Source: Octopus vulgaris
Lineage: Eukaryota
NCBI GenBank assembly: GCA_951406725.2
Contig: OX597824.1
Location: 17,484,001-17,548,000 of the forward strand
Direction: 5' to 3'
Length of the DNA stretch: 64,000 nt
Shown here: positions 1,812 through 55,680 of the stretch, in pieces
Layout of the letters: every line of letters starts with the position of its first letter
Numbering within the stretch: position 1 is the first letter of the stretch
Program-made: the position numbers and the translations under genes
Notes under the pieces: model-generated
Seen by the model: only the letters and a program-made list of their open reading frames with translations
What the model was told of the DNA's origin: nothing
The model's database searches: none

Positions 1812-1876
<65 letters not shown>

Positions 1877-2101: not shown

Positions 2102-2173
2102 TATATATTTATGTTAAAATATTAAGAACTATGGACACGATAAACAAGTATTTAACAAACATTGGATTGAATT

Positions 2174-2374
2174 TATGACACAAGGCCAGCAAATTTTTTT
2201 GAGGGGAGTCAGTAGATTACATGCCCCAGTGTTCAGCTGGTATTTTTTTCATCGTCTCAGAAAGGATGAAAGACAAAGTGGAACTCAGTGTATTTTGATC
2301 TCAGAACGTTAAAGACGGACGAAATGCCGCTAAGCACATCCGGCGCTTTAATGATTCTACCAGCTCCCCGTCTT
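2174..2374 (-). mobile_element. Old SINE-B copy with tail-2
   Basis: Degenerate match to GAAAGGATGAAAGGCAAAGTCGAC..CTCAGAACGT..GACGAAATGCCGCTAAGCA. Confidence 0.75.
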
Positions 2375-2962
2375 AAGTTTTAAACAAATATTAAGTGCCA
2401 AGTTACATGAATTATGTTGGAAAAATAAACAGAAGCAATGGGAAAATATTCTGCAATGTCAAAAAGATATGACAGTGAGTAGCGAAATAAAAATTAAAAA
2501 ACAATCATCTTGGGAATGTTTATGAAATTTTCGTACTGACTGCCAATGCACACATCGAGGTAAAGATCTTGGGATATACTTTGAAAGAAATTAATAAAGC
2601 GTTAGTAAAGATGCAAGAGATATTAAAAGGAATTACAAGAATATTAAAGGGGAAAACTGTATTAGCAGATAGGGAAGGAAGAGATAAAGAAAAGTAAAAT
2701 TCGTAGAAGTGATACAACTATGGTGAACCGAGTAAAAATTTTGAAGGAAAATTAATTAGATAGGATTGAAAATTTCGTCAAGAAATCTATACGGATATAA
2801 AAGTATACGAAAGTCAGTATAATACTATTTATTATCATGTAGTTTTTAAAAATACATTTGGTAATCCTGGTAACAAGACGAGGTTGCCAGAAGCAAAGAA
2901 AAGTGATATATACATCTACGTAAGGACCTGACTATGTTTAGTTAGAACCAAACGCGCACGCG

Positions 2963-3096
<134 letters not shown>

Positions 3097-3195
3097 TTAC
3101 ATACATATATATAGAGATAGATATATATCATATATATGTTGTTGTTGTCTTCTTTTCCTTCTTCTTCTTCTTCTTCTCCTCCTCCTCCTCCTTCC

Positions 3196-3759
3196 AATCA
3201 GGTCTCTCGCCATTATCCGCAAAGAATAATCTCTAATTCGAGCCGGCTCTAAGCTACTAAGAATGCGTGTGGCAACTTGAAGATCCACCCACCACACGCG
3301 ATAGACTGGCGGTTGCACGGGCGCGAAAGAAGATTTATGTTCCTATAACCTGTGTTAATTCTGTAACCCTTTAAAATGGAAGATAAGAACGTTCATTTTC
3401 GACACTTGATGCTTAGGGAACCAGACAAAAATTGCTGCAACTGGGCTGGGATGTGTTCCCCAACCCTCCATATTCACCAGATATTGCTCCCTCGGATTTC
3501 CACTTATTCAGGTCTCTGCAGTATAGTCTTAATGGTAAATATTTCAATTCCTTGGATGACGTAAAAAGATACCTTGATGAATTCTTTGCCATGAAATAAC
3601 TCCAATTCTGGGAAGAGTATTTTCAAGTTAAAGGAAAGATGGAGACGCATTGTGCAACAAAATGGTTCATATTTGGTTGATTAAAAATATAATGGCTTAT
3701 ATTTATTGAACTTTTTCTTTCCTTTAAAAATCGGCACGAACTTTCCGGACAACCCAATA
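3196..3759 (+). mobile_element. Internally deleted mariner transposon relic with right TIR
   Basis: N-terminus MEDKNVHFRHLML joined to TRQKLLQLGWDV..PPYSPDIAPSDFHLFRSLQ..KERWRRIVQQNGSY (YSPDxAPSD motif); terminus CGGCACGAACTTTCCGGACAACCCAATA; left TIR not seen. Confidence 0.9.
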
Positions 3760-3849
3760 CAATTATGTTCCTGCAAAAAAATATATTACAGATCGTTATA
3801 GTTACGAAATGTAACGCAGATAAATAACTTCACAGACATCAGGATGATC

Positions 3850-5400
3850 TCGGAAAAAATCTAGAAGTCTTCTGATGATACAGGATATAAAAGCATAATC
3901 CCCAAACTGCACCAGCAACAGCTGAAAAACTAAAATATAAATCTACAGCATATAAATGGCCCAAGTCAGTTTATCATAGCTTCAATGCCAAATGCCCATT
4001 CTCTTTAAAAGAGACCCCGACAAAAGATCAGGTTGAGGGCTACTGGAGATCTATAAAGGAAACGAGTGATAAGTCCAACAAAGAAGCTGTATGGATAAAA
4101 GAACTGGAGCGGGATAACTGCCAACATGTTCAGTAAAAGCATAATGAAATAGACGGCAAGTTACTGGAAGCAGTTCTACAGAAAATGTCAATCAGGAAAT
4201 ACTCTGACTGAGACCTCATAACTGGTTGAAGAATTTCATCTTTTATCGGCGAAATCTTATACTACGGCATGGAGGAACTATAAAAGGCTCAGAAGAACGA
4301 CTCCAATGGTTATCAACTGCAACTACTCTACTCATCCCTCAAGCCACTCTTGCTAAAAATTACCACCCAATAGCCTACCAGGACACCATGTACATAAAGT
4401 GCACTGGGTGCCTGAATCTGTTCTTTCAAGATCATTGTGCCACCAACAATACTATAACACCTGAGAAAGCTGGAGGAAAGAAGGAGTCGTAGGTCTGTAT
4501 ACAGATGCTACTAATTAACTAAATTATCATGGAAAGAACAGCAAAAATCACAGGATCTTAAGTGTGGTCTAGCTGGACAACCAAAATGATTTTGATAGAA
4601 TGCCGCATGGTTGGATTATGAAGGGTTTAGAGTTAGCGAAAGTCCCACATCCACTTGTGAGTACTCTTGATCGCCTGACTTGGTACAGGAGGAAATCGGG
4701 TCACATAGCATTCACTGCCAAAAAGGCTTCTTTCAAGGGGATAGCCCCTCAGTGTTGCTCTTCATCTTATTAAAACCCTATCATACCTGCTCAGAAAACA
4801 TAGGGGCAATAGAAATGGATCCAGAAATATCTCCCATCTTTTCTTTGTGAATGGCCTGAAAGTGTAGGGGCCAAATACTAAATGCTGGAAAAAATTGGCG
4901 CTCATTACCCAATTGGTGAATCCAAATGTACATTTTTGACATAACGTAGAAAAGTTATGCCCTCCTCTGAAAACATAAAACTGCACGGCATTACAATACA
5001 ACCTTTAGAATCAGATGACAATTATATGTATCTTGGAGAAAACGAGAACGACATACATAATGGACCCATAAATAAGGAGAGGACCTGGAAAGAATATCTC
5101 AGGAGAGTAAAGAGAATATAGTCGTCAGAACTCTGAGCTCACAAAAGGCATTTGCCCACAACACCTTTCTAGTGCCTGTAATCACACCTACGTTTGGCCT
5201 ACTGAACTGGTCGCTACAAGAACTCGATGAGCTAGATGTTTGAACTTGCAAGTTGTTCTGTGTTACAGGAAACTCCATCATCAATGGAGATATAGACAGT
5301 CTATACTTCCGAAGCAATGATGGTGGACGTGGTTTCAAAACAGTATTAATGTCATATGAATCATAAAATACACTGACGCTGAAACATCGGCAACTGATAA
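3850..5400 (+). pseudogene. Heavily degraded reverse transcriptase of an R4/Dong-like non-LTR retrotransposon
   Basis: Ordered remnants across frames: KNYHPIAYQDTMY, FDRMPHGWI, GFFQGDSPSVLLF, ISHLFFVNGLKV, YMYLG, AHNTFLVPVITPTFGLLNW, DIDSLYFRSNDGGRG. Confidence 0.8.
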
Positions 5401-5612
5401 GGAATTCAGTAAGTATCTTTCCTAAGTTTATGACAATGCAACCAATCTATAATAATAAATGCCCAATCGAATTTCTGTGTGTCAGTGTGTCACTCTTTGA
5501 TCCCCTCTGTCACTATTCGGTGATACTTCTACTCCTCTTGCTGGGGTGAGAGTAATAGTAGGCATAGAGAATGTGAGGGCGGTAGTACGTGCATTGGGAC
5601 CATTATTTATAC

Positions 5613-6198
5613 ATTTTTCTTTACTACCCACAAGGGGTTAAACACGGAAGGGACAAACAAGGACAGACAAACGGATTAAGTCGATTATATCGACCCCAGT
5701 GCGTAAATGGTACTTATTTAATCGAGGTAAAGTCGACCTCGGCGGAATTTGAACACAGAACGTAGCGGCAGACGAAATACCTATTTCTTTACTACAAACA
5801 AGGGGCTAAACACAGAGAGGACAAGCAAGGACAGACAAACGGATTAAGTCGATTATATCGACCCCAGTGCGTAACTGGTACTTATTTAATCGACCCCGAA
5901 AGGATGACAGGCAAAGTCGACCTCGACGAAATTTGAACTCAGAACGTAGCGGCAGACGAAATACATATTTCTTTACTACCAACTAGGGGCTAAACACAGA
6001 GAGGACAAACAAGGACAGACAAACGGATTAAGTCGATTATATCGACCCTAGTGCGTAACTGATAATTATTTAATCGACCCCGAAAGGATGAAAGGCAAAG
6101 TCGACCTTGGCGGAATTTGAACTCTGAACGTAGCCGCAGACGAAATCCGGCCACAAATTTCACCCGGCGTGCTAACGTTTCTGCCAGATCGCCAACTT
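5613..6198 (-). mobile_element. SINE-B tandem trimer (all tail-1)
   Basis: One head plus three body/tail units; junctions near 5781 and 5964; flanked by CCATTATTTATAC / CCATTATCTATAC (TSD-like). Confidence 0.92.
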
Positions 6199-6365
6199 CC
6201 ATTATCTATACCTTGTCTTATATATCACTCTGTGTAAAAAACCGACTGGGGCCCAGCCACAGATCTGCAATATAGAATTGTGATGAAACGTAAACTCGGA
6301 GTTCTTTTCAATAATCTAAACAATATTGTCAGCCTCGTGTGCAAACGGAGAGCTTTACAGAGAAA

Positions 6366-6408
<43 letters not shown>

Positions 6409-6789
6409 GATAGATTGCTAGAAATATATATATCAAGAAAGAGATAATTAAACAGATGCATAAACAGTAAGAATGATAACTATGTATATATGCGTACTTG
6501 CATATATCTATGCATAAGCGTGTTAGCGTTAAGACTCCGCGTCAGCGTGGGCTCTGTACACATACGATATAACTTTTATTATTATCGTTATTATAGTGAT
6601 AATAGTAATTATAACTGAACAGTCGTACCGTACCCTCTTCTGTATTTTTGTATACGTAAATAGGAATTTGTATTCAAATATTCCCGAAATAAATATTTAG
6701 TATAAGACAATCACACGTTAGCATACATATATTAAATTATTGCGAATTGTAATTTGATTAGAATTAGAGAAATGTGAAATGCAGAATTT

Positions 6790-7860
<1,071 letters not shown>

Positions 7861-8008
7861 TACTGTTGTATGTATATCTTGATCGAGAAGAAATGAAATA
7901 GATGGATATACGCCAATAGAGAAGTAGTCAGCGAGATAGCGATAGACCGGTAATTAGACAGGCAGATAGACAGACAGACAGATAGATAGTTAGATAGATA
8001 AACAGATA

Positions 8009-8995
8009 ACTTTTTATTGTGGCCACACAGGGCTAAACAAAGACATAAATAATGGACGAAATACAATGTAGAGTTTTTTCTTTTCGGGGTGGGATGGGTG
8101 GTACATACAAAGAAAAAAAAAACGTTCGATCAATAGGGATCTGTGGGTTGTGTGGCGTATAAAAATATAATATATCTATATATATAAAACTGTAGTTGTG
8201 TGAGTGTCTGTCCCCTTCGATTTAGATTCCTAACTACTCCCACACTTTGCGGTGCAGTTTAACCAAATTCGGGTATCTTATAGTCGTGATTCATATCGAG
8301 CCCGTCTGAGTATTAGCGCGCGTCTACGATGAGTCTACAATTTTAAAAATAATTTAACATCATTTCTTATTCCATTTTAATGCATAATGTTTCGTGTGTC
8401 GATGGCGGCGGAGTTGGCGTCCATGGTCACACCTGCACCTGTTTGCTTCTTCCCCTTCTTCCCTCCCTCGTGAAGCTATGGGGAAGGGAGTGTAAGAAAT
8501 CAACGTCGTAATGCGTTGTCAAGGAGACCAGCGTTCTTTTAGAACAACGACTTCATGGCTTGAAGACACCAAAACAGAAATGGCTAAGAAAGCCCGAATT
8601 GGCATCTATAAGGGAAGTAACTCTCTAAAAATGCTTATATAGTTATTTCCCTTACAAACCCGAGCAACGCCGGGCGATACTGCTAGTATATATATATAAA
8701 TAAAGTTCACAGTTTAGGTGTAGCCCTGGAAAGATAACCTACAAAAAAGGCCAAGGTCACCTCAGACAGTTCGAAAATGAACATATGAGTAAGTCGCCTT
8801 ACATCTCGTTGTCTCTTTTGGTCACAGATTTACGCTTAAAGTAGTGTCGTCTTTCATACTGACCATTTTTGCCACTTTCACCCACTTTTTATTAAAACAT
8901 TCGTTCGACAAAGCCTTCCTCTCTATTCTCATCCTCCTTTTCAAGTGGTACTTGAAAAAGTTGACGAGGGACCGACCAGAGAGGAAGAGAGATTC
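8009..8995 (-). mobile_element. Tx1-clade LINE 3' fragment (copy c), interrupted by a Helitron
   Basis: 8822-8995 reverse strand reads [57 protein letters not shown], homologous to the C-terminus of ORF 40953-42695; 3' end AGCCCTGTGTGGCCACAATAAAAA abuts degenerate GATA/GACA repeats. Confidence 0.9.
8175..8686 (+). mobile_element. Non-autonomous Helitron
   Basis: A|TCTATATATATAAAAC start; 3' hairpin CCCGAGCAACGCCGGG then CGATACTGCTAG|T; inserted between A and T without TSD. Confidence 0.88.
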
Positions 8996-9502: not shown

Positions 9503-9874
9503 CTAGCAGTATCGCCCGGTGTTGCTCGGGTTTGTTTCGACCCTTTAGAATTTGAATTTTTGAAAAGTAAAAATTTTGCATTATGTAGCTTGTTATTCTC
9601 TCTAAGTGAACATTTTTCTAGTTGAAATACACCGAAAATGGCGACTCGTAAAAGTAGGGATTTTTTTTTTAAAAAAAAGCACCTTTTGATGTAAATAATT
9701 TTTGGTGTTAACATGGTCCTATTTGGATTTTTTTCTTCTACGGAATAAAGAGCAAGCCTTCTATCATACTCTCAATTTTGGTCAACTTGCGCCGCAGGGT
9801 CTTGGAGGAAATAGTGTTAGTTGAAGGCTACCAAACCTGCCACACACAGACAACTTCAGCTTTATAAATATAGA
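9503..9874 (-). mobile_element. Non-autonomous Helitron, second family
   Basis: Reverse strand A|TCTATATTTATAAAGCTGAAGTTG ... CCCGAGCAACACCGGGCGATACTGCTAG|T. Confidence 0.88.
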
Positions 9875-10527: not shown

Positions 10528-10898
10528 ACGTTACAAGAATGTTTGCAAAAGGGACAGGAAGGCCTGCAATATCAATATTAGCGGTTGGGAGGCAGTTGCC
10601 GGCAACCGTGGAGACTGGCGACGTACCGTAAAAGAGGAAATACAAAGGAATGACAGAGAGAGAGAGAGGAGAAATGGAAAGACAAGAAAAGACGTCAACA
10701 AGAAACTATGGCATTACAACCAGCCAGGAAGAGTCTTCACTACATTTGCGGTACCTGCCAGAGGGGGTGTTTGTCCAGGATAGGACTACACAGCCACAGC
10801 AGGAAATGTATCAGGACATGAAATGAAAAAGCCGGACTAGACTACTTTATGCCGCAACTCCATTGTCTCCCGAGACAAAAAGGATGCCAACCAACCAA

Positions 10899-10901
<3 letters not shown>
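10528..10901 (+). mobile_element. RTE-clade LINE 3' end
   Basis: [35 protein letters not shown] then, after frameshifts, [20 protein letters not shown]; short UTR CCATTGTCTCCCGAGACAAAAGGATGCC plus (AACC)n tail. Confidence 0.88.
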
Positions 10902-11535: not shown

Positions 11536-11592
11536 AACACACACACATACATATATATATTGGCGTGGGTAGTGTTGTAGTAAGAAGCTTGC

Positions 11593-11734
11593 CGAGGTCG
11601 ACTTTGCCTTTCATCCATTCGGGGTCGATAAATTAAGTACCAGTTACACACTGGAGTCGATATAATCGACTTAATCCGTTTGTCTGTCCTTGTTTGTACC
11701 CTCTGTGTTTAGCCCCTTGTGGGCAATAAAGAAA
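11593..11734 (+). mobile_element. 5'-truncated SINE-B (tail-1) inserted in the SINE-C head
   Basis: TSD TAAGAAGCTTGC at 11581-11592 and 11735-11746. Confidence 0.93.
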
Positions 11735-12021
11735 TAAGAAGCTTGCTTCCCAGTGACATGGTTCCGGTTTCAGGCCACCAGGGAAAGTGTCTTCCTCTAT
11801 AGCCTCGGATTGACCAAAGACTTGTGAGTGAATTTGGTAGACTGAAACCGAAAGAAGCCCGTCGTATATATGTATGTGTGTGTGTGTCTTTGCGTATGTG
11901 ATTGTCCACCAACACCGCTTGACAACTGGTGTTGGTGTGCTTACGTCGCTTCACTTAGCAGTTTAGCCAAAAAGTTCGACAGAATGAGCACCAAACTTTA
12001 CACAAAAAAATAACAAATACC

Positions 12022-12342
12022 TTTATTTATTTATTTATGCACCCTTATCAAGCCTAGCCAGGCTCATGGGCTCGGTTTCCCGGTTTCTATGACGTATGTG
12101 TTCCCTCCCAGCTGGATGGGACGCCAGTTCATCGCAGCGTTACTCAAGAAACAGGAAGAAGGAGTGAGAGAAAGTTGTGGTGAAAGAGCACAACAGGGGT
12201 CACTACCAACCCCTGCCGGAGCCTCATGGAGCATTTAGGTGTTTTCGCTCAATAAACACACACAACGCCCGGTTTGGGAATCGAAACCGTGATCCTCCGA
12301 CCGCGAGTCCGCTGCCCTAACCACTGGGCCATTGCGCCTACA
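12022..12342 (-). mobile_element. SINE-A, tail type 1
   Basis: Head GGCGCAATGGCCCAGTGGTTAGGGCAGCGGACTCGCGGTCGGAGG..GGTTTCGATTCCC; V-domain-like CTGGCGTCCCATCCAG; (AAAT)n tail. Confidence 0.9.
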
Positions 12343-13199
12343 CAATAAGTACCTAGATTGGCTAAATTTATTTAAGGCGATGCCCTAGCTTGGTCGCAGT
12401 CTAATGACTGAAAGAAGAAAATAAGGGGGAAAAAAGGGAATGCTATGTATGGAAACAGACGAATTGAAATTATAACTAATCTTCAGTCAGTTACCACATC
12501 AAAAATCTATTCTAGCTTGTATTGGAAACTTCCATGGAATAAAGAGCTACTAGGAAATTATCCTTGTGCTTAGCACTCATGCGTGTTGCATATTTGTGCA
12601 TTTTAATGTTCACCATTGGCGTATGTATTGAATACTCTTATCGAATACGCTTCTAGGGAAACAATTTTTCTGCAAAATTTTCTATAAATTCTTTCTTGGA
12701 ATATTTTTCACACTGATATGTTCTTACATGTATAACCTATGATCCCCGCTAGGTTATTTTCAGCGTGTTTCGAATTTAAGCAAGCGATGCGTACACGAGC
12801 AAACCTCATGCAATCAGTCGCTTGAGGACCAGGAACTAGAAATTTCGAATAGTGACGAAGGCGAATTCAACTTTGTATCAATAAATAAATAAATAAGTCA
12901 AGAAATAAATATATCTTAGGATGTCTGCATATATCTAAATACCAATTCCCTCTCTTTCACTATCTCTCCCTCACTCTCCACACATACATACAAAACAAAA
13001 CACAAATTTCTACATGCACTGACGCCAAATACTGCACATATAGACAGTTACATACAAACACACATACACACACACTTGTATATATACACATACAAACAAA
13101 CAAGCGAACAAAGAGAGATCCTGTTGATATTGTTGAAATTCCAATGAAGCAATCTTGGATGTAGGTTAGAAACCGGCTCTTTCTCTATTGGCAAGAAAT

Positions 13200-13350: not shown

Positions 13351-13830
13351 AGAAAAATTGTCAATAAATCATGAAATAAAACTGAATAATGAGATATATA
13401 TATATAGGCATATATGTTATTAATGACTTGTAGACACACAGTAATTCATTGTGTAACCATAATATATTGCAAAGTATAATATATTAGATAATATATTACA
13501 AAGTATATTAAACGTTTTTATAAGTCAATACCCTGTACTACCATGAAATCACGTGCTAAAATCATTTCTACAGATTTTCTGTAGAAAATGAAGCCAGTAC
13601 AGGTTTTGTTACGGCGATTCGTACCGGAGACGTCAGATGTAAACAAACAATAAGATCGAAGATGAAAAGATGGATAATGGGCGAGATTTTTGTCCTTCAT
13701 CAGTACCCATATAATCCATTAATCACCCATGAACTCATTGCTTGAATAGCCACTACGTATAGCGGTGTAACGGTATTGGATATACCAATTTACATATTAA
13801 AAACGCTCCTGGACGCTGGTACTAAATATT

Positions 13831-14413
13831 ATTTTCTACTCTAGATACAAGGTCCGATATTTTGGGGGAGGGAACCAGCCAATTAGATCGACCGCAGTAC
13901 GCTACTGGTACTTAATTTATCGACCCCGAAAGGATGAAAGGCAAAGTCGACCTCGGCGGAATTTGAACTCAGAACGCAACGGCAGACGAAACACCTATTT
14001 CTTTACTACCCACAAGGGTTCTAAACACAGAGGGGACAAACAAGGACAGACACACGGATTAAGTCGATTACATCGACCCCAATGCGTAACTGGTACTTAG
14101 TTTATCGACCTCGAAAGGATGAAAGGCAAAGTCAATCTCGGCGGAATTTGAACTCAGAACATAACGGCAGACGAAATACCTAATTCTTTATTACCCACAA
14201 GGGGCTAAACACAGAAGGGACAAACAAGGACAGACATAGGTATTAAGTCGATTACATCGACCACAGTGCGTAACTGGTACTTAATTTATCGACCCCGAAA
14301 GGATGAAAGGCAAAGTCGACCTCGGCGGAATTTGAACTCAGAACGTAACGCAGACGAAATACCGCTAAGCATTTCGCCCGGCGTGCTAACGATTCTGCCA
14401 GCTCGGCCGCCTT
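13831..14413 (-). mobile_element. SINE-B trimer (tail-1, tail-1, tail-2)
   Basis: Junctions near 14180 and 13995; imperfect TSD GCTGGTACTAAATATT / GCTGGTATGTAAATATT. Confidence 0.92.
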
Positions 14414-16643: not shown

Positions 16644-17888
16644 GAACATATTGGTAACTCTGTCGCAGTGTTTCTGACTCATTAAAACAATGTAACGTTC
16701 TGTTAATAAAGTATATTTAACCGTCGAGGTCGAATCTGTCTTTTGTCCTTTTGGGGTCGATAAATTAAGTACCAGTTGCAAACAGGGGTCGATCTTATCG
16801 ACTGACCTCCTCTCCCAAAATTTCGGGTCTTGTGCCTAAAGTAGAAAAGAATATGTTGGTAACTCTGTCGCAGTGTTTCTGACTCATTAAAACAATGTAA
16901 CGTTCTGTTAATAAAGTATATTTAACCGTCGAGGTCGACTCTGCCCGTTATCGTTTCGGGGTCGATAAATTAAGTACCAGTTGCACACAGGGGTCGATCT
17001 TATCGACTGACCTCCTCTCCCCAAATTTCGGGTCTTGTGCCTAAAGTAGAAAAGAATATGTTGGTAACTCTGTCGCAGTGTTTCTGACTCATTAAAACAA
17101 TGTAACGTTCTGTTAATAAAGTATATTTAACCGTCGAGGTCGACTCTGCCCGTTATCGTTTCGGGGTCGATAAATTAAGTACCAGTTGCACACAGGGGTC
17201 GATCTTATCGACTGACCTCCTCTCCCAAAATTTCGGGTCTTGTGCCTAAAGTAGAAAAGAATATGTTGGTAACTCAGTCGCAGTGTGTCTAACTTATTAA
17301 AACAACGTGACATCCACTTAATAAAGTATATTTATCCGTCGAGGTCGACTCTGTTTTTTGTCCTTTTGGGGTCGATAAATTAAGTACCAGTTGCACACAG
17401 GGGTCGATCTTATCGACTGACCTCCTCTCCCAAAATTTCGGGTCTTGTGCCTAAAGTAGAAAAGAATATGTTGGTAACTCAGTCGCAGTGTGTCTAACTT
17501 ATTAAAACAATGTGACATCCACTTAATAAAGTAAATTTATCCGTCGAGGTCGACTCTGTTTTTTGTCCTTTTGGGGTCGATAAATTAAGTACCAGTTGCA
17601 AACAGGGGTCGATCTTATCGACTGACCTCCTCTCCCAAAATTTCGGGTCTTGTGCCTAGAGTAGAAAAGAATATATTGGTAACTCAGTCGCAGTGTGTCT
17701 CACTTATTAAAACAATGTGACATCCACTTAATAAAGTTTATTTATCCGTCGAGGTCGACTCTGTCTTTTGTCCTTTTGGGGTCGATAAATTAAGTACCAG
17801 TTGCGCACAGAGGTCGATCTTATAGACTGGCTCCTCCCCGCCAAATTTCGGGCCTTTTGCCGAGAATAGAAAATAATAAAGTATATTT
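16644..17888 (+). repeat. Six-unit 205-bp tandem array, each unit ~70 bp flank plus 3' half of SINE-B (tail-2)
   Basis: TTGGTAACTC recurs at 16651, 16856, 17061, 17266, 17471, 17676. Confidence 0.97.
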
Positions 17889-18838: not shown

Positions 18839-19203
18839 TTGTGTTGAAACACACAAGAGAATGGCAGTGATTACATTTCCTCTTTTGAAAAAAAAAGAAA
18901 ACAAAAAATACCAGAATAGTAAATACCAGTAATTAATTTCGGACACCGACAGTTTGTGGACAAACACCCAAATTTAGCAAAGGATTGTGAAAAATATTTG
19001 TGGTTTTAGATATTAGCAGGAGGCTTGCAATTCAAAGGATGGAAAAAATGGATAGCATCGACCTTACTGCTAAACAATAAAAAGGGGCTGTCGATTGAAC
19101 TCAGGACGTAATGAATTGGAACAAATGACGCATAGTATTTTGACTGATGTGATGACAAGTCTACGAGCTCGGTTCCACATTTTTAATAATTTTGCTATCA
19201 TAA

Positions 19204-19803
19204 GGCGGCGAGCTGGCAGAAACGTTAGCACACCGGGCGAAATGCTTAGCGGCATTTCGTTAATCTTTACATTCTGGGTTCAAATTCCGCCGAGGACGAC
19301 TTTGCATTTCATCCTTTCGGGGTCGATTAAATAAGTACCAGTTACGCACTGGGGTCGATAAAATCGACTTAATCCGTTTGTCTGTCCTTGTTTATCCCCT
19401 TGTGAGTAGTAAAGAAATAGGTAATTTCGCCTGTCTTTATATTCTGAGTTCAAATTCCGCCGAGGTCGACTTTGACTTTCATCCTTTCGGGGTCGATAAA
19501 TTAAATACCAATTACGTACTGGGATCGATGTAATCGACAACCCCATTGTCTGTCCTTTTTTGTCCCCTCTGTGTTTAGCCCTTTGTGGGTAATAAAGAAA
19601 TAAGAGGTGTTAGCACGCCGGGCGAAATGCTTAGTATTATTTCGCCTGTCTTAACATTCTGAGTTCAAATTCCGCTAAGGTCGACTTTGCCTTTCATCCT
19701 TTCGGGGGAGATAAATTAAATACTAGTTGAGTTACTGATGTCGATGTAATCGACTGGCCGCCTCCGCCAAAATTCCAGGCCTTGTGCTTGGAGTTGAAAA
19801 GAA
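19204..19803 (+). mobile_element. SINE-B trimer (tail-1, tail-1, tail-2)
   Basis: Junctions near 19420 and 19603; TSD AATAATTTTGCTATCATAA / AATAATTTAGCTATTATAA. Confidence 0.92.
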
Positions 19804-19827
19804 TAATTTAGCTATTATAACAAACTA

Positions 19828-21135: not shown

Positions 21136-21146
21136 CATATATTGTT

Positions 21147-21487
21147 GAGGCGCAATGGCCCAGTGGTTGTGCCAGAGGATTCGCGGTTTCGATTCCCAGA
21201 CCGGGTGTTGTGAATGTTTTTTGAGCGAAAACACCTGAAGCACAACGAGGCTCCGGCAGAGGGGTGTGTGGGCGGACTCTACTGTACACTTTGACCACAA
21301 CTTTCTATCGCTCTTTCTTTCTGTTTCCGTTGTACCTGTATTTCAAAGGGGCCAGCCTTGTCACGATCAATCTCCCCGAGAATTACGCGTCTGTGGAGTG
21401 CTCAACCACTTGCATGTTAATTTCACGAGCAGGATTTTCCATTGATCGGATCGACTGGAACCCTCGTCACCGTAATCGACGGAGTGC

Positions 21488-28780: not shown

Positions 28781-29219
28781 ATTTTTGTGTGCATATGTCT
28801 GTACACTAATGTCTCTGTTGCTTCTGTTTTCACCTGTACCTAATTATATCCACAAATACAAACGATATGGAAAACAATAAGATCAACAACAACAGCAACA
28901 ACAACAACAACAACAACAACAACAGTTATAATTGCAACAACAAGAATTAATGTAATAACAATTTTATTTATTTATAGAAACCGAATTCTTTGCTTTATAG
29001 TTCCTGCTCCACATCAACACTTCACCTTAATTACTCTGTGTCTAGTAGCCGTTGATTAGATGCATTCTTCTATATGCATTTACATCTAATATATATTATA
29101 TATAATGAACTAGGCGACACTTTCACACCTAACATATCTGTGAAATTTCTTTTAATAACTCTCTCATCCAGATCTCCGTTCGAAATACTAATTTATATAT
29201 ACGCATTTATCTTAAGCAG

Positions 29220-29825
29220 AACTAATAAACATTCTACTATGGATGCAAAGCCTGGAATTTTGGGGTTAGATACATGGCTAATCGATTATTTCTACCTCCC
29301 CATCACCGTGCGAGAATAGAACTTTTTTTCGATTCTGAAAGGACTTCAGTGGAATTTGAACTTACAACGTTAACCCGGAAAAAATGCCGCAAAATAAGAA
29401 CTAACACATTTTCTACCATGGACATAAAGCCTGGAATTTAGGGTTTGGCACCGTGGCTAATCGATTACTTCTACCTCCCCACCCCCGTGTTTGAATAGAA
29501 TTTTTTTTATCCTGAAAGGGCGGGAGATGAAGTCGACTTCGGTGGAATTTGAACTCACAACGCTAACTCGGAAAGAAGTGCCACTAAATCAAAACTAATA
29601 AATTTTCTACTATGGACATAAAGCCTGGAATTTAGGGCTTGGGTACGTGGCTAATCCATTACTTCTACCCACAACCCCTGCTTGAATAGAAGTTATTTTT
29701 TCGATCCTGAAAGGAGGTTAGGTGAAGTCGACCTCGGTTGAATTTGAGCACAGAACGTAAACCCGGAAAAAATGCCACTAAACATTTTATCCGGCGTGCT
29801 AACGATTCTGCTAGCCCGCCGCCAT
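29220..29825 (-). mobile_element. Old SINE-B-like trimer (tail-2-like units)
   Basis: Three diverged units of ~180-200 bp, TTCTAC.ATGGA..AAAGCCTGGAATTT..GGAATTTGAAC; head at 29790-29825. Confidence 0.8.
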
Positions 29826-29854
29826 AATGATTACTAATACGATGTTAACTAAAG

Positions 29855-30964: not shown

Positions 30965-31544
30965 GAACACGAGGAAATAAACAGATGACGGGCTTCTTCC
31001 AGTTTCTGTCTACCAAATCCACTCACGAGGCTTTATTAGGCCCGAGGCTATAGCAGAAGACACTCTCCCAAGGTGCAACGCAGTTGAACTGAACCCAGAA
31101 CCATGTGGCTAGGAAACAGACTTCTTATCACACAGCCACGCCTTCGCCTATAGTATAATTTACTAAAATAACATGTGCTCGAAATTTAAGCGCCTGCAGA
31201 ACTCTTATGAATGTATCTTTCTCTCATAGGTTAACAACCGTTCATAGAAAGGTCTCGAAGTATATAAAAACAAGCCACTCCTAATTTAAAACCACCTCCA
31301 CCACCATATGGTTTGAATTTCGACCATAAGGTCGGTCCTTTAATCGCCTACAATTTTACAAGGTGTGATTCATATGAATATGTTTAGTATGGCATTGGCG
31401 GTGAGATCTAATCTGCATCTGTTGCTTCAGTTTCAACTGCTTGGTTGGGTGGCTTGCTACACTTCTGAAGGACATTAGCATTGTCCCACCTTTCGTCACT
31501 TCCTTACACACACATGCAAACACACGTATATTACGGTTTTCATT

Positions 31545-33582: not shown

Positions 33583-33710
33583 TATTTCTTTACTACCCAC
33601 AAGGGGCTAAACACAGAGGGGACAAACGGATTAAGTCAATTATATTGACCCCAGTGCGTAACTGGTACTTATTTAATCGACCCCGAAAGGATGAAAGGCA
33701 AAGTCGACCT
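33583..33710 (-). mobile_element. Truncated SINE-B (tail-1)
   Basis: TATTTCTTTACTACCCACAAGGGG..GGATGAAAGGCAAAGTCGACC. Confidence 0.9.
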
Positions 33711-34852: not shown

Positions 34853-35704
34853 TTCTTTCCTACAATAGGCACAGGGCCTGAAATTCAAAAGAAGAGGACT
34901 AGTCGATTACATCGACCCCAGTGCTTAACTGGTACTAAATAATCGACCTCAAAAGGATGCAAAGCAAAGTCGATCTCAGCGGAATTTGAAAACAGAGCAT
35001 AAGGACGGACGAAATGCTGTCTAGGGTATTTTGTCCGGCGTGCTAACGTTTCTGCCAGCTCATCACCTTCAACAAATCTTTTGATATTCTTTCCTACTCT
35101 AGGCACAAGACCCGAAATTTTGGGGGAGGAGTCTCCTCCATTAGATTGACCCCCAGTACGGAACTGGTAATTAATTTATCGACCCTGAGAGGATGAAACG
35201 CAAAGTCGACCTCGGCAGAATTTGAACTCAGAACGTAGCAGCAGACGAAACACCTACTTCTTTACTACCCACAAGGGACTAAACACAGAGAGGACAAACA
35301 AGGACAGACAAACGGATTAAGTCGATTATATCGACCCCAGTGTGTAACTGGTACTTAATTTATCGAACCCGAAACGATGAAAGACAAAATCGACCTCGGC
35401 GGAATTTGAACTCAGAACGTAACGGCAGACGAACTACTGCTAAGCAATTCGCCCGGCGTGCTATCGTTTCTTATTTCTTTACTGCCCACAAAGAGCTAAA
35501 CACAGAGGGGACAAACAACTACAGACAAATGGATTAAGTCGATTTTATCGACCACAGTGCGTAACTGATACTTATTTAATCGACCCCGAATGGATGAAAG
35601 GCAAAGTCGACCTCGACGGAATTTGAACTCAGAACGTAACGGCAGACGAAATACCGCAAAGCATTTCGCCCTATGTGCTAACGTTTCTGCCAGCTCGCCG
35701 CCTT
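34853..35704 (-). mobile_element. SINE-B cluster: single tail-2 copy (34853-35069) plus trimer tail-1, tail-1, tail-2 (35089-35704)
   Basis: Junctions near 35471 and 35254; TSD AATCTTTTGATATT (35075) / AATCTTTTCATATT (35708). Confidence 0.92.
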
Positions 35705-35999
35705 ACTAATCTTTTCATATTAATAAATTGTTGATTCTTAGATGCTGAAAGCTTCAGAAACATACATGTTCACTTCCAGCTGCTTATGGTGGTCGAACCG
35801 TAGTACAAGGGTACCTAACTGCATATATATGTGACTTTTACCATTTGATCGATTGATTCATTAATGCATTCATATCATATGCAATGTATGATGATGTTGG
35901 TGATGCTTTTGGCTGTAGGCGACAAGAATAACAAGAAAACCAATAAATATTAATTAACTCAACACCCATTCCGCTCGAAATTTCGCTTATTTGCGGGTG

Positions 36000-38224: not shown

Positions 38225-38598
38225 ACGCGCTGGTTTAGTGGTTAGGGTGTTGCACTCATGATTGCGAGATCGTGGGTTCGGTTCCCGTCTAAGCTCCACG
38301 CCACAACTTTCTCTCGCTCTTTCTTCCTGCATCTTGCAGCTCCCCTGCGACGACCGGCGTCCCGTCTAGGTGGGGTGCGTATAACCCAAGGAAACCTATT
38401 TCTTTATTACCCACAAGGGGACAAACAAGGACAGACATAGGTATTAAGTCGATTACATCGACCCCAGTGCGTAACTGGTACTTAATTTATCGACCCCGAA
38501 AGGATGAAAGGCAAAGTCGACCTCGGCGGAATTTGAAACCCAAGGAAACCGGGAAACCGGCCCTATGAACCAGGCATGACTCGAAAAGGAACAGAACA
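38225..38598 (+). mobile_element. SINE-A-related copy containing an antisense truncated SINE-B (38397-38536)
   Basis: TSD AACCCAAGGAAACC on both sides of the SINE-B insert. Confidence 0.85.
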
Positions 38599-38948
38599 GC
38601 ACATTTCAGACAACTGCCTACATGGATGGTCCATGATACCATAGAAATTGTCTTAAGAATGACTTAACCGACGACACTATCAAGTGATGGTTATTAAAAC
38701 ATATCCTGGGTCTGTTTTAGCTCTCTTTCTCTGTTCATGTTTTTTTGTCTTCACACACACTTACAACCAGAACCCAATCCACGATCTATCACCGGATGAT
38801 GCATTAAATGGTTACCTGCGCAGTATGGATACAGGCATCTCAAATTTACCTATTTCCAGGAAGATTAGAAAGGTATTGAAAGAGAAAAACCCTGCTAGAT
38901 ACATTTTGTATATGTATGTGCGTGTGTGTGTGTATATATGTTTGTGCG

Positions 38949-39125
38949 CGAGCTGGCAGAAACGTTAGCACGCCGGGCGAAATTCCGCCGAGGTCCACTT
39001 TGCCTTTCATCCTTCCGAGGTCGAAAAATTAAGTACCAGTTACGCACTGGGGTCGATGTAATCGACTTAATCCGTTTGTCTGTCCTTGTTTGTCTCCTCT
39101 GTGTTTAGCCCCTTGTGGGTAAAGT

Positions 39126-39127
<2 letters not shown>
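38949..39127 (+). mobile_element. SINE-B (tail-1) with internal deletion at AAAT microhomology
   Basis: CGCCGGGCGAAAT joined directly to TCCGCCGAGG. Confidence 0.9.
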
Positions 39128-39181
<54 letters not shown>

Positions 39182-40373: not shown

Positions 40374-40438
<65 letters not shown>

Positions 40439-40587
40439 ATAGATAAGTAGATAGATGGATAGATAGAAAGAGAGAAAAAGAGAAAAAGAGAGGTGAGTGT
40501 ACGCTGGAAACTGATAAACATACATAGAGACAGACAGAGAAACAGGTAGATAGATAAATCGGTAGATAGATAGACAGACAGACAGAC

Positions 40588-40648
<61 letters not shown>
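40330..40648. repeat. (GATA)n/(GACA)n tracts around a unique spacer; left flank of Tx1 copy a
   Basis: 40429-40648 is repeated at 43906-~44118. Confidence 0.95.
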
Positions 40649-40649
<1 letters not shown>

Positions 40650-43600
40650 CTTTCTTTTATTAGCCACACAGGGCTGAATACAGAGGGGACAAATACAAAT
40701 GCAGAGCTTTTCTTTTCGAGGGTGGAAAAAAATTAAAAAATGTAAGATTGCGATCAAAAGGGATCGAGAGGAGGAAAAAAAGGAAAAAAAAAAGGAATCG
40801 TGTATCACAGAAATAATGATGTAAACATTGATATAACAAGATTGGGTTCATCCGTGGGAAGAAAAGCCTACAGAAAAGACCACGGGAACCCCAGTCAGGG
40901 AGGAAATAACCACATGAGATCAAAAATGCTCTCTTTCTTTCTTTTTTACGATCTACAGGATCATGCTCAAAATGGTTTCGTTACTAGCACGCACCATCTT
41001 TGCAACATTCACCCATCTTTTTTTGAATCTTTCGCGAGACAAAACTTCCCTCTCCATTCTCACCTTCCTTTTCAAGTGGTACTTGAAAAAGTTGATGAGC
41101 GATTGGCCAGAGAGGTAAGTGTTTGTCTCTAATCCTTTCGCTCGAGTCCACCACACACATTCTTTCACCATGGCCACCAGTACGATGAAAACTGCCTTGC
41201 CTTCCCGGTTGAGGGAAGGGGGCGGACCAATTCTCACGATAGACTCGGCCGATAGGCGGATTCGTCCCACACGTGACAGCAGCCGTTCGGCATAAGCCCA
41301 CAGGTCGGAAATGGTTGGACATTGCACGAGTGTGTGCAGAACGGTTTCGTCGCTCTGACCGCATCTCGGGCAAGTCGGTCCAGTGTGTTTGGAACCGTGT
41401 CTGTAGAGCTTATCCCGAACAGGTAATGCTTCTCGATAGCACTGCCAGGCCAGGGATCTTTGGTGATTGTTCATAGGTCCCGGCCCGAAAGTTGTCCTGA
41501 ACAGGCGGGTCAGGTGTTCCTCGTCGACGCCCAGACTCTGCCCGAGTTCGTCGTCGCACCTCCCCTCCACTAATCCTCTATAGAATGCCTTTGTTGTGAT
41601 GGAGTCGCACAAGTTCGATCCCGGACGGCAGAGTTGCTTGAGAGCAACGCGACACTCGCGGTGCCATTCGCCTAGCCTCGGTCTCTGCTTGATCCATGAC
41701 TGTAGTTCGTCCAAGGAGACGAGCTGCGGGAAAGCGCGCCGCACAAAAGGCGACCACCCCTGTTCACCGTTGTCTATGAAGCGCCGGAGATGTCGCAGTC
41801 TCAGCGCATGTCTGCGCATCATCAACCACGGCATGCCCAGCCCTCCATTTAGCGGGTGTTGGCAGCAAATGGATCGCCTAACCATCGGAACGTTTCCCTT
41901 CCACAAGAAGCGGAAGAGTATGCGTTCCAGTTTGGTGATGGTAGGGTCGGGACAAGGCACGACGGTCAGACGATACTCGATGACGGATGCGATGTACGCG
42001 TTCGCCACCTCCGCCCGACCTTTTAGGGATAGCTTTCTCTCAGTCCATTTCTGGGTGAGAGTAGCCACCCTAGTCGTTATCTCGCCCCAGTTCTTCTCCA
42101 TTTGGAGGTCCGGACCGAACCAGACCCCGAGCAATTTAACCGGTCCGTCCGTCCAGCGTCCCACGATGGAGACGCTGTTGGACGGCATGGGCTTGCTTCT
42201 CCAGGTGCCGAGCCGCAAGCCCACTGACTTTTCCCGGTTAATTTTTGCTCCCGTTACCGCTTCGTATTCTTTCAGTGTCTCGCCGACCAGCTCGATGTGC
42301 TCGTAGCTCGACACTATGACGGTGACGTCATCCGCGTATGCAGACACGCTCCTCCCGCATCCCAGCTCTCGTGGGATGCCCCTCAGCGTCGCCAGTTTCC
42401 GCAGTAGTGGCTCAAGAGTCAGTACATACAGCAGCGATGAGAGGGGGCATCCCTGACGAACCGAACGCATGATGTTAAAAGGTCTGGATAGATGACCATT
42501 TACGCGAACTACTGAGCGGATGCCGCTGTATAAGGCAGCGATCCAACCGCGGAAAACTGGACCGAAACCAGCCGCTTTGAGGACAGCCTCCAAGTAGTGA
42601 TGGTCTACCCTATCGAAGGCTTTTGATTGATCCAAATTGATCAGCGCCCCAACCATGCCAGGATTTTTAACTACCCTGTCTATGATGTAGCGCATCAGAT
42701 GGAGGTTGTCATGAATACTTCTACGGCACGGCGCATGTTTGCGCCTTGTCGATTAGTTTCTTGATGACAAGCGCCAACCTCTCGGCTAACACCTTGGCCA
42801 AAATTTTCAAATCTGCGTTGAGCAGAGTGATGGGCCTGAAATTATCTATGACGTCCCCCTTGTTTGGGTCTTTCTTGATCAGTGCCACTGCTCCTCGCTT
42901 TACAAAAGCAGGAATACTCCCGTTCTGCTGCCAGTTGCAGTAGACAGCTGCCAAGACGCCTCCAAACAAGTCTGGCATATGAAAATAAAATTCGTAGGGC
43001 AGACCATCCAAGCCTGGTGACTTGTCTCTCGCGCAGCCTACCATCGCATCCTGTACGTCCGCAGCTGTGATAGGCTTTTCACAAGACTCCACCTCCCTTG
43101 CTGAGAGTCGTGGCAAGGCATGCAGGTAGGCACTAAAGTCCACTCTGCTTTCTGACTCACCACTTGTCCCAAACAGTTGGGTGAAGTGTTGTTGAAAAAC
43201 CCCACACATCCTTTTAGGCTCGAGCAATTCGCGCCCCTGTTCATCTATAAGAGACTTGATGGTGGCTCTGTTGCCTCGTTGCGTCTCCACCACTCGGGCC
43301 TCTTGGGCGGCTCCAACTCCTTCGTTCCTCAGAGCACGCATCCTAGCTCTGACAACGCATCCCTCGTGTTTGGCGTTGAGGTGTTGGTCGAGGGCCAATC
43401 TCGCCGCCAGTACGTTGGACGCGATACCAGTTCTAAGTGCCTCTTCTAAAACCTTAACTAATTCTCCCTCTATTCTATTTCGGTCTAATGCTAGGGCTCT
43501 AGTGTATCTGACTGATTCTGCTTTAATCGCTTTTTTTAGGGCATACCACCATCTGTTGTTGATGATGGTACCCGTCAAAGCTCTCTTAACTAATGTGCTG

Positions 43601-43905
43601 ATCCGGTCCCTGTAAACCTGTCGTGCTGTAAAAGACGCGTTCAGTTTCCAGTAACCAGGACCCTGCCTATGTGTCTTATCTAAGTCAAGTGTACAAGTCA
43701 CAAACTTGTGATCTGTGTAACTGACTATATGAAATTGTGGACAACCTACACTATTTTTATCTATTGTCCTACAGAATACTCTATCTAAGTATGATCTGGA
43801 CGACCCGATGCGGTTACTCCATGTCCACATTGGCACATTCGGGTGGTCCAGTCGGTACCTGTCAGACAGTTGGAAACGTCTGAGCAGGTCTTTGAGGCAT
43901 TTGCA
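40649..43905 (-). mobile_element. Tx1-clade (L1 group) LINE, 5'-truncated, copy a
   Basis: ORF2 from the end of the APE endonuclease through RT and CCHC domain, plus ~300-bp 3' UTR; long flanking direct repeat. Confidence 0.96.
40953..43905 (-). pseudogene. Tx1 ORF2 (partial endonuclease, RT, zinc knuckle) with one frameshift at ~42720
   Basis: SRSYLDRVF..YTDHKFV, GPGYWKLN, KSPGLDGLPYEFY, NFRPITLLNADLKILAK, LDQSKAFDRVDH, VRQGCPLS, AYADD, CPRC..H....C; CAVP|RSIHDNLHLMRY continues in another frame. Confidence 0.96.
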
Positions 43906-44064
43906 AGATAGATAGATAGATAAGTAGATAGATGGATAGATAGAAAGAGAGAAAAAGAGAAAGAGAGAGGTGAGTGTACGCTGGAAACTGATAAACATAC
44001 ATAGAGACAGACAGAGAAACAGGTAGATAGATAAATAGGTAGATAGATAGACAGACAGACAGAC

Positions 44065-44118
<54 letters not shown>

Positions 44119-44119
44119 G

Positions 44120-44151
<32 letters not shown>

Positions 44152-44165: not shown

Positions 44166-44790
44166 TGTTTCTTTATTAGCCACACAGGGCTGCACACAGA
44201 TAGAACAAATTACAAGGTAGAGCTTTTCTTTTGGGGGTAAAAATAGGAGAGTGGTGGTTTTCGATCAAAAGGGATCGTAAAAGGAAAGTAAAAGGACAAA
44301 AAAAGGGGGGGGTTAAAAAAGGGGGATAGAAAAAAATGAATAATAGGGATCGTTATCACAGAAATGTCAATATGAAGTGTAAAGGGGAGGACAGGTGAGG
44401 TTTACCCGTGGAAAGAAAAGCCTACGGAAAAGACCACGGTAACCTCGGTCAATGAAGTCACATTTTGTATATTTTTTTTTTTTTTTTTTGCAAATAAGCA
44501 ACTCTCTGTATTAATTTTTATGGTTCATAGAATCATAGTCAAGGTGGCTTCGTCATTCATACGTGCCATCCTTGCTACATTCACCCATCTTTTTTTAAAA
44601 CATTCACTAGACAAAACTTGCCTCTCTACTCTCACTTTCCTCTTCAAGTGATACTTGAAGAAGTTGATGAGAGATTGACCAGAGAGGAAAGTGTTTGTCT
44701 CTAATCCTTTCAGGCGCGTCCACCAGATACATTCTTTCGCCATAGTCACAAGTATGATAAAAATAGCTCTTCCTTCCCGTTTGAAGGAAG
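44166..44790 (-). mobile_element. Tx1-clade LINE 3' fragment, copy b (different subfamily)
   Basis: [48 protein letters not shown]; distinct 3' UTR; (GATA)n on both sides. Confidence 0.94.
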
Positions 44791-44855
<65 letters not shown>

Positions 44856-44901
44856 GATAGGTAGATAGATAGATAGATAGATAGGTAGATAGATAGATAG
44901 T

Positions 44902-45000
<99 letters not shown>
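44791..45000. repeat. (GATA)n microsatellite
   Basis: Direct inspection. Confidence 0.97.
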
Positions 45001-51834: not shown

Positions 51835-52433
51835 AGCGGTGAGCTGGCTGAAACGTTAGCACGCCGGGCGAAATGCTGAGTGGTATTTTGTCTGCCGTTA
51901 CGTTCTGAGTTCAAATTACACCGAGCTCGATGTTGCCTTTCATCCTTTCGGGGTCGATAAATTAAGTACCAGTTACGCACTGTGGTCGATATGATCGACT
52001 TAATCCGTCGGTCTGTCATTGTTTGTCCTCTCTGTGTTTAGCCCCTTGTGTGTAGCAAAGAAATTGGTATTTCCTCTGCCGTTACATTCTGAGTTCAAAT
52101 TCCGCTGAGGTCGACTTTGCCTTTCATCCTTTCGGGGGCGATAAATTAAGTACCAGTTACGAACTGGGGTCGATATAATCGACTTAATCCGCCTATCTGT
52201 CCTTGTTTGTTCTCTCTGTGTTTAGCCCCTCGTGTGTAGTAAAGAAATTGGTATTTCCTCTGCCGTTACGTTCTGAGTTCAAATTCCGCCGAGGTCGACT
52301 TTGTCTTTCATCCTTTCGGGGGCGATAAATTAAGTACCAGTTACGAACTGGGGTCGATATAATCGACTTAATCCATCTGTCTGTCCTTGTTTGTCCTCTC
52401 TGTGTTTAGCCCCTTGTGGGTAGTAAAGAAATA
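51835..52433 (+). mobile_element. SINE-B trimer (all tail-1)
   Basis: Junctions at 52066 and 52250 (184-bp period); perfect 14-bp TSD GGTACCTTGAGAAA (51821-51834, 52434-52447). Confidence 0.95.
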
Positions 52434-54814: not shown

Positions 54815-55046
54815 TATTTCTTTATTGCCCACAAGGAGCTAAACACGGAGGGGGACAAACAAGGACAAACAAAGGGGTTAAGTCGATTACATCGACCCCA
54901 GTGCGAAACTGGTACTTTATTTATCGACCCCGAAAGGATGAAAGGCAAAGTCGACCTCGGCGGAATTTGAACTCAGAAGGTAACGACACACGAAATACTG
55001 CTAAGCATTTCGCCCGGCACGCTAACGTTTCTGCCAGCTCGCCGCC
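54815..55046 (-). mobile_element. SINE-B monomer, full length (tail-1)
   Basis: TSD TAACTGTGTAATATA on both sides; best reference copy of the family. Confidence 0.95.
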
Positions 55047-55680
55047 TAACTGTGTAATATAGCTTGTGCTTTATCACAGAATGAAGCAACTGACAGATGT
55101 CGAATTATTCTCACACCTGAATTATGATACAACTGGTTGATTAGGATCTGCTAAGCCACTCAGGTGTCTGATGGCTATGTAATTTATACAACCCATCTAT
55201 AAATACAAGCAAACCTAGGCTAGAGATGGATATTTCATAACCCTTCCCGGCATATCTGTCTCGGGCAATAGAATTTGCACCATTGAGTTGTTGCTACCAA
55301 CTTTCACAGGCTGTAAACTCTCCAGCTGACATGACTAGGATGGATGGATGGATGGATGGAGGATGGATGGATGGATGGATGAATGGATGGAAGGATGGAT
55401 GGATGAATTGGATGGATAGATGGATGGATAGCTGGATGGTTATCATTTCCCAAATAAATCTTCTTGTCTTCTCTAGTGTCGTCCAAAAGAGTATAGAGTA
55501 ATACGTTTGGCAATTGTTTGGCAACAGTTTGTTTATAGTTTGACTGGAAGAGATGCAAACAAAATGAAGAGTCGATCCACAAACGAGCTTAAGGGTTCCA
55601 CACTGCATTTATTACAAGGTTTACGCTATAAGCTTTGTCTCGTACGGGAGGGAAGTTATTTGCCTAGAACTGAGTATCAT

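Follow-up and report, generated by a model that had tools for sequence, protein, structure and literature searches.

Sequence homology between the poly(A)-free 3' ends of an octopus SINE and of L1/Tx1-group LINEs

The window analysed here, the whole stretch of 64,000 nucleotides of Octopus vulgaris DNA, is AT-rich and SINE-rich, and about a quarter of it (15,866 of 64,000 bases) was masked as simple repeats. A SINE with 34 core matches in the window (SINE-B) is built as a monomer of about 235 nt, consisting of a head, a core and then one of two tails, tail-1 or tail-2. Matching contigs number 1151-7340 per sequencing run, and with its 5' truncations and target-site duplications the element fits a short, interspersed, non-coding SINE. 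Motifs seen by eye in the head are presumably A- and B-box-like. A tRNA was sought in the head: ARAGORN returned 0 genes, and Rfam, applied to 54790-55070, gave 0 matches up to an E-value of 10. For a tRNA-derived head, the SINEBase rule asks for a stretch of 60 nt that is 60% or more identical to a tRNA (PMC3531059, available in part).

Tail-1 is the true 3' end of seven SINE insertions. A full-length monomer (54815..55047, minus strand) is bounded by a 16-bp exact duplication, and 5'-truncated monomers lie at 11591..11736 (plus strand; 12-bp exact duplication, private base at 11698), at 38397..38537 (minus strand; 14-nt internal deletion, 14-bp duplication beginning GGT) and at 33583..33710 (minus strand; duplication uncertain). 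In a further monomer, at 38948..39128 (plus strand), the terminal tail-1 is degenerate and followed by a (TA)n tract, and no clear duplication is present. The other two insertions are trimers of three tail-1 units, at 51836..52433 (plus strand; 14-bp duplication beginning GGTA) and at 5612..6197 (minus strand; duplication of about 15 bp with 2 mismatches). Flanking duplications of 12-16 bp are present at five of the seven, a size that is not specific to the L1 group. The units of trimer 51836-52433 have private changes in common and look like products of tandem duplication rather than of repeated insertion.

Trimers with the order tail-1, tail-1, tail-2 occur at 13826..14413 (minus strand), with both junctions at a GGT site, at 35085..35705 (minus strand), with an AGAA junction after the first unit and a GGT junction after the second, and at 19204..19806 (plus strand), where the units end at 19419 (tail-1), 19602 (tail-1) and 19806 (tail-2). 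In the last of these, unit 1 has head and core, units 2 and 3 have part of a head and core, and the whole is flanked by a 14-bp duplication with 2 mismatches (19190-19203 and 19807-19820). A trimer of diverged, tail-2-like units at 29211-29826 (minus strand) indicates that multimers exist without tail-1 too. A SINE-derived satellite of six head-to-tail 205-bp units, each of core, tail-2 and spacer, occupies 16721-17878 (plus strand).

Other elements are also found in the window. A second family of SINEs is present at 46650-47050, 59394-59785, 1659-2083 and 30987-31150, with another 3' end and a (TA)n/(TG)n tract in its interior. In one segment it is similar to the terminal part of the SINE-B core, and one of its copies (head around 11725-11864) was the target of the tail-1 insertion 11591-11736, at an AGAA site in that head. 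A third SINE group has one head and body and two tails (12041-12346, 45852-46157, 45521-45716, 47218-47598, 21143-21487 and 61090-61335), and we presume that it may be OR1/OR2. Two LINE fragments on the plus strand, at 10528-10900 and 56030-56410, we take to be RTE-like and R4/Dong-like, respectively; the visible 3' end of the former gave no match to tail-1.

Three copies of another LINE, here a, b and c, lie on the minus strand, and all three are 5'-truncated. Copy a (40651..43905), which is cut off within the endonuclease region, codes for the domains RVT_1 and zf-RVT. Its ORF2 is in two frames, with a frameshift near 42722-42727 and a stop at 40953-40955, and is followed by a 3' UTR of about 300 nt that ends in the tail common with SINE tail-1 (40651..40693), has a predicted hairpin with a CUGUGU loop, and is succeeded directly by (TATC)n. 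Copy b (44166..44790) shares 80% identity with copy a along 276 nt. It has TATC at both junctions, the tract at its 5' junction extending over 44791..45000. A SINE head fragment at 45000-45030 (minus strand) breaks off at this tract, and its remainder was not seen in the downstream sequence that was inspected. Copy c consists of the ORF2 end with the first half of the 3' UTR (8690..8986; 70% identity to copy a over 283 nt) and of the remaining 3' UTR with the tail (8008..8175, tail at 8008-8052), with the 13-nt hairpin motif as in a and b and a degenerate TATC tract thereafter. It is interrupted at about 8180-8690 by an insertion whose 33-nt end motif recurs inverted at 9503-9535, and which we assume to be Helitron-like.

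Copy a is flanked, on the minus strand, by a 220-bp direct repeat (40429..40648 downstream and 43906..44125 upstream, 217 of 220 positions identical), which starts with (TATC)n and of which about 160 bp are not pure (TATC)n. Read as a target-site duplication, this repeat would be of unusual length, such as a second nick in the next TATC tract might leave; alternatively, it may be a local duplication or an assembly artefact.

The first-pass annotation had named this element a Tx1 LINE. Its RVT_1 and zf-RVT domains, the PF03372 domain carried by full-length relatives and the profile scores place it, at the level of sequence, in the L1 group (L1 and Tx1). A profile made from the ORF2 half of copy a and 28 relatives gave 512-577 bits for three Tx1/YTX2-named proteins, compared with 393-395 bits for human L1 ORF2p and 93-135 bits for R2 proteins, and in single-sequence comparison the LINE protein scored 175 bits against a Tx1-named protein versus 75 bits against human L1. 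This order of scores points to an L1-group element that likely belongs to the Tx1 clade; the L1-group part of the name is thus sustained, and the Tx1 part is a placement by similarity rather than by a rooted tree. Members of the Tx1 clade have an ORF1 with zinc knuckles. In a tree of 121 RT segments, midpoint-rooted with weak deep support and built without an L1 outgroup or the closer homologues found later, the LINE groups with 28 unnamed proteins (support 0.989) and not with Tx1 proteins of vertebrates. Among named relatives of its protein, the closest belongs to Argonauta hians, an octopod (64% identity, with 97% of the query covered); a protein of a cuttlefish has 36%. A cluster look-up of 9 relatives gave no informative names, protein scans of prokaryote and viral contigs gave no relative, and a metagenome protein scan gave 32 distant LINE loci. 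At metagenome locus L009:1200-1500 (approximate), some 500 bases past a related RT gene fragment, lies a candidate snRNA-like sequence that we take to be a U2 snRNA gene.

It had been claimed that the SINE tail at 19559-19600 matches the 3' end of copy a in 38 of 43 columns, both segments lying at the extreme 3' end of their elements. A global alignment reproduced the identity (38 identities, 4 mismatches, 1 gap) at the same coordinates. The position agrees for the LINE, of which 40651 is the 3' end, but not for the SINE, since 19559-19600 is internal to a trimer: this tail (19559..19602, plus strand, with a predicted hairpin) closes unit 2 of trimer 19204-19806, is followed by the AGAA-site part of a SINE head, and the duplication-bounded end of the trimer carries tail-2 instead. 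Without the A-rich final 10 nt (the AATAAA end), 28 of 32 bases are identical between the quoted tail and copy a. Among 2000 dinucleotide shuffles of the query, compared with copy a on both strands, the maximum was 22 and none reached 28 of 32; 200 shuffles against the whole window gave a maximum of 24, and a 24-nt tail pattern had 14 matches in the window versus 0.00 expected. Of the 15 SINE copies in the scan, which match copy a at 21-28 of 32 positions with a mean of 24.7, the quoted tail is the best. The count is ungapped, penalises indels in two copies and leaves two more, with a 14-nt deletion, below the scan cut-off, and a private C>T loop change supplies one of the matches of the quoted tail. 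On the LINE side, the A of copy a at 40679 is a minority letter, the SINE-like G making up 72-90% of summed contig depth in four of four runs, where depth is no copy number. The tail of copy b (44168-44209) matches the quoted SINE tail at 35 of 42 positions. Poly(A) is absent from all three LINE ends and all 17 tail-1 ends, and both elements stop at AAAGAAA and about two further bases.

Chance or convergence upon a U/G-rich element and an AATAAA polyadenylation-like signal could produce a resemblance of this kind, inasmuch as the final 10 nt are a generic A-rich signal and the TTTGTCCCC motif occurs also in an unrelated SINE of the window. Against this explanation, the match of 28 of 32 excludes the signal and exceeds every shuffle, and a comparable match is absent, on both strands, from the 32 metagenome loci of related LINEs (best local score 29, opposite strand). 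Chance or convergence was rejected on the shuffle test and the three-copy alignment, and its probability is regarded as negligible. Alignment shows SINE tail-1 and the three L1/Tx1-group LINE 3' ends to be homologous, poly(A)-free sequences. Tail patterns had 0 matches in the metagenome, viral and prokaryote collections, and since the 32 loci of distant relatives show nothing like the tail, it is lineage-specific. A better-matching non-Tx1 LINE was sought in the window and the 32 metagenome loci, and none was seen there.

The tail belongs to the LINE lineage as a whole. All three copies carry it behind UTR blocks in the same order, with unalignable spacers between the blocks, and a 13-nt motif, AGCCCTGTGTGGC, is invariant in copies a, b and c despite their 70-80% identity. 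The end of copy a (40646-41095) was compared at 80% likeness with Logan contigs of 4 of the 24 listed runs (three organism codes), one of which may be the source of the assembly; for loose ends, 24 of 636 rows were listed. All 30 bins of 40646-41095 are covered in each of the four runs, and no contig in these runs covers the entire stretch. Contigs that leave copy a at 40692-40694 continue in LINE-UTR-like sequence in runs X1, X4 and X9 (131, 139 and 150 contigs) and in SINE sequence in run X20 (8 contigs), and single contigs bridge tail and UTR (X20 record 9, over 40646-40883, and X4 record 17). Past the terminus, 132, 157, 190 and 7 contigs of the four runs give a (TATC)n consensus, with an agreement of 0.56-0.59 in the large runs and 0.96 in X20. 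It had been allowed that the shared segment might be a SINE scrap stuck onto a few Tx1 copies; this is ruled out by the contigs that run from UTR to tail and by the conserved UTR blocks of all three copies. A SINE fragment added to one LINE was rejected as well, by three copies 70-80% alike and by contigs that lead from UTR through tail to (TATC)n. Further sister families exist, as indicated by loose ends at 41044: there, 43-58 contigs of three runs go on in frame with ORF2 but in diverged sequence. The tail was not seen in the contigs of the sister family that branches there.

The direction of the transfer is suggested by relative ages. Divergence from the group majority averages 5.2% in 16 tail-1 cores and 15.1% in nine tail-2 cores, counted with 16 of 17 tail-1 units (5676-5770, with an internal deletion, was left out), with 1 of 6 satellite units, and with unit 2211-2309 as tail-2. 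Tail-1 thus sits on younger units and tail-2 on older ones with head and core common to both, so that tail-1 is newer than the body that carries it; it is also younger than the split of the tail-sharing LINE copies, which favours transfer from LINE to SINE. The reverse, in which a LINE ancestor captured a SINE 3' end, might seem attractive because SINE tails outnumber LINE tails in the window by 17 to 3 and because LINE-SINE chimaeras form easily. It is nevertheless considered very improbable: the tail-sharing LINE copies differ from one another by 20-30%, versus about 5% for the tail-1 SINE units, the older SINE units bear the other tail, and none of the LINE tails is preceded by a SINE core. 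Tail-2 did not align to copies a, b and c of the LINE (best score 18), and a direct link between them was rejected on that ground.

Both SINE and LINE tails contain a predicted stem-loop with a 4-bp stem, 12 nt from the end; in the quoted tail, 19578-19581 would pair with 19587-19590 around a loop at 19582-19586. The loop is CUGUGU in 3 of 3 LINEs and CUUGU in 13 of 17 tail-1 and 8 of 10 tail-2 copies. Stem positions are paired in 59 of 68 cases for tail-1, 34 of 40 for tail-2 (2 of 6 satellite units included) and 11 of 12 for the LINEs, through three different stem sequences; the corresponding values are 30% for positions taken at random and 0 of 13 for an upstream CTTG of the same tail. The stem counts lack independence, as copies of one family are related, and the choice of loop positions followed sight of the sequences; a conserved hairpin is accordingly suggestive only. 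Folding z-scores for seven tails range from -2.40 to +0.15, with only copy a below -2. In the zebrafish L2 system (ZfL2), stems can be swapped and loop swaps abolish transposition (PMC4176376, in part). As loops there are not interchangeable, the one-base loop difference speaks against the LINEs of the window as the cognate partner of the SINE.

The unremarkable folding energies, and a concentration of the SINE-LINE differences in the hairpin itself, would also suit a tail that is a Tx1-derived relic, on a SINE that is moved by relaxed recognition or by another clade (RTE, CR1 or R4). RTE, Dong-R4 and CR1 elements have been recently active in Octopus vulgaris (PMC13282606 Table 1, in part). 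For this relic reading one may also cite the RTE-like and R4-like fragments of the window; these labels are our presumption. A relaxed enzyme would nevertheless find no poly(A) or simple 3' repeat to hold, the motif is kept among LINEs 20-30% apart, and tail-1 marks the younger SINE wave. The preference for GGT and AGAA sites described below further points to a nuclease that selects its target, and preferences of this kind are common among Tx1-clade elements (PMC4494074, in part). A relic tail is, on balance, rather unlikely.

Insertion sites separate the two elements. TATC follows all three LINE ends, is found at the 5' junctions of copies a and b also, and recurs in contigs of four of four runs, against a background in which 0.9% of sampled window 40-mers hold at least 4 TATC; the LINE thus shows a target-site preference, which is frequent though not obligatory in the Tx1 clade. 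TATC follows none of the 17 tail-1 units, in agreement with the earlier observation that the SINE copies do not lie in GATA tracts. Ten of these 17 adjoin the SINE's own head, 8 at GGT and 2 at AGAA; among the remaining 7, three flanks start with GGT or AGAA (p about 1e-4, window frequency 1.5%), and one more has such a start in the 5' copy of its duplication. In four further runs, compared with 11670-11746 at 88% likeness after GGT/AGAA junctions had already been seen, loose ends past the tail-1 terminus are GGT/AGAA head junctions or AT-rich flanks, and neither a TATC consensus nor an upstream end resembling LINE UTR is present in the 24 of 126 loose-end rows listed. The insertion signature of the GATA-family LINE (TATC at 3 of 3) is not that of the SINE (0 of 17), and for this reason the SINE is not classed as a partner of that family.

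The GATA-targeting family of the window might itself mobilise the SINE if targets were set by RNA-DNA pairing, such that a read-through (UAUC)n RNA pairs with the nicked target and SINE RNA reading into GGUA or AGAA pairs with others. The co-terminal ends (AAAGAAA, then CA or TA) agree with this, as do the non-SINE targets, which match the first bases of the next multimer unit as microhomology priming would give. Copy a is also young, with 3 differences in its 220-bp flanking repeat, so that the GATA family was active recently. We hold such mobilisation to be unlikely nonetheless. The LINE loop CUGUGU is invariant in three of three copies and unlike that of the SINE, which is the kind of change that abolishes ZfL2 transposition (PMC4176376, in part); TATC at the 5' junctions of copies a and b is what a sequence-specific nuclease would give; and no SINE tail of the 17 is in TATC.

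A sister family of the LINE is therefore proposed as the working partner of the SINE. The tail, being family-wide in LINE 3' ends, would be the source of the SINE tail, and a tail swap from LINE to SINE is suggested by tail-1 on the younger and tail-2 on the older units. The terminal hairpin would be the handle for ORF2p, by analogy with L2 elements, in which the loop sets specificity. The partner would be a sister Tx1 family with a CUUGU loop, as the loop and target differences suggest, whose ORF2 protein would nick GGT/AGAA sites instead of TATC repeats. Many multimers would arise as tail-1 SINEs land at two sites in the heads of other copies, some being likely tandem duplications. The first-pass annotation had hedged toward a sister family with different targeting, and the different targets and loop fit that suggestion, but no sister was found in the window or in the contigs listed. 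A CUUGU-loop tail behind LINE sequence was not found in the window, nor was a sister LINE locus in scans of the metagenome, viral and prokaryote collections. Taken jointly, the proposals that the SINE acquired its tail from the LINE, that ORF2p recognises the hairpin and that a sister family is the partner are judged reasonably probable.

A broader and more tentative reading, possible but short of an even chance, is that of an octopod Tx1 radiation without poly(A) in which the hairpin loop serves as a family address, the SINE swaps tails, and its multimers are self-built. CUGUGU would then denote the GATA-targeting families and CUUGU a family homing into the SINE head, and the SINE would have hopped between families, acquiring tail-2 and then tail-1 with the loop kept, its multimers forming by landing in its own head. 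Should this broader reading be true, it would provide an animal L1-group system with stringent recognition, in which loop and target can be read in pairs from sequence. It has been an open proposal that the L1 group ancestrally recognised a specific 3' structure, a capacity lost toward the poly(A)-reading mammalian L1 (PMC3472496, in part). That proposal has so far rested on plant and algal pairs, to which an animal L1/Tx1-group radiation adds a direct test, made possible by a poly(A)-free animal 3' end that is common with a SINE and whose loop and target vary by family. Such a radiation would, in addition, be a likely engine behind part of the octopus SINE load, SINEs making up 11.6% of the O. 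vulgaris genome (PMC13282606, in part).

Among known systems, SINE/LINE pairs that share a tail are textbook cases for the L2, CR1, RTE and I clades (PMC3747384 Table 1). The octopus elements resemble those pairs, ZfL2-1/ZfL2-2 included, in having a short co-terminal 3' sequence with a predicted stem-loop (PMC3747384; PMC4176376, in part), and in that stems appear to vary and loops to be kept; here, the SINE appears to have swapped tails on a fixed head and core. They differ in that the LINE is an L1-group, target-specific element, the 3' tail has no simple repeat, and recognition is predicted. In the L1 clade itself, the plant and algal pairs of ZmSINE2/ZmSINE3 with LINE1-1_ZM and of SINEX-3_CR with L1-1_CR have a similar conserved 3' end and hairpin, the conserved 3' end of the monocot L1 lineage being about 45 nt (PMC3472496 and PMC3747384, in part). 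Only 3 such SINEs were reported among over 800 L1-clade LINEs, with none listed from animals or from Tx1 (PMC3747384).

Within animals, the crocodilian SINEU and Tx1-Mar provide another case of a SINE tied to Tx1-clade LINEs, likewise with preferred sites inside another repeat and with tandem SINE copies that were read as sequential insertions (PMC4494074, in part). That link consists of targets and 5' heads in common and of age, SINEU having a poly(A) end (PMC4494074, in part), whereas the link here is a poly(A)-free tail, and the LINE of the window does not have the SINE's target. The LINE is comparable to the Tx1 families Kibi, in (TC)n, Koshi, in (TTC)n, and the crocodilian families in (TTCC)n/(TTTC)n, which are likewise inserted into a microsatellite in a single orientation and have its repeat on either side (PMC4494074, in part); unlike these, its target is (TATC)n, and the midpoint-rooted tree places it outside the vertebrate Tx1 proteins. 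A (TATC)n-targeting Tx1 family was not found in a literature search. The SINE is like the octopus SINEs OK, OR1 and OR2 (PMC4824008, in part) and the tRNA-Core/tRNA-Deu classes (PMC8967140, in part) in its abundance, Pol III-like boxes and central domain, a likeness by description only, and the portions available of these two sources mention no partner LINE. Neither a Tx1-tailed SINE nor a partner for an octopus SINE appears in the available portions of PMC4758252, PMC4824008, PMC5786205, PMC3531059, PMC8967140, PMC10294476 and PMC13282606. The literature search found no tail-sharing Tx1 SINE, octopus SINE partner or Tx1 3'-end assay, and Repbase or Dfam may annotate the pair. Judged by its sequence, with a co-terminal 3' segment that is family-wide in the LINE, the SINE together with the LINE radiation appears to behave like a stringent SINE/LINE pair.
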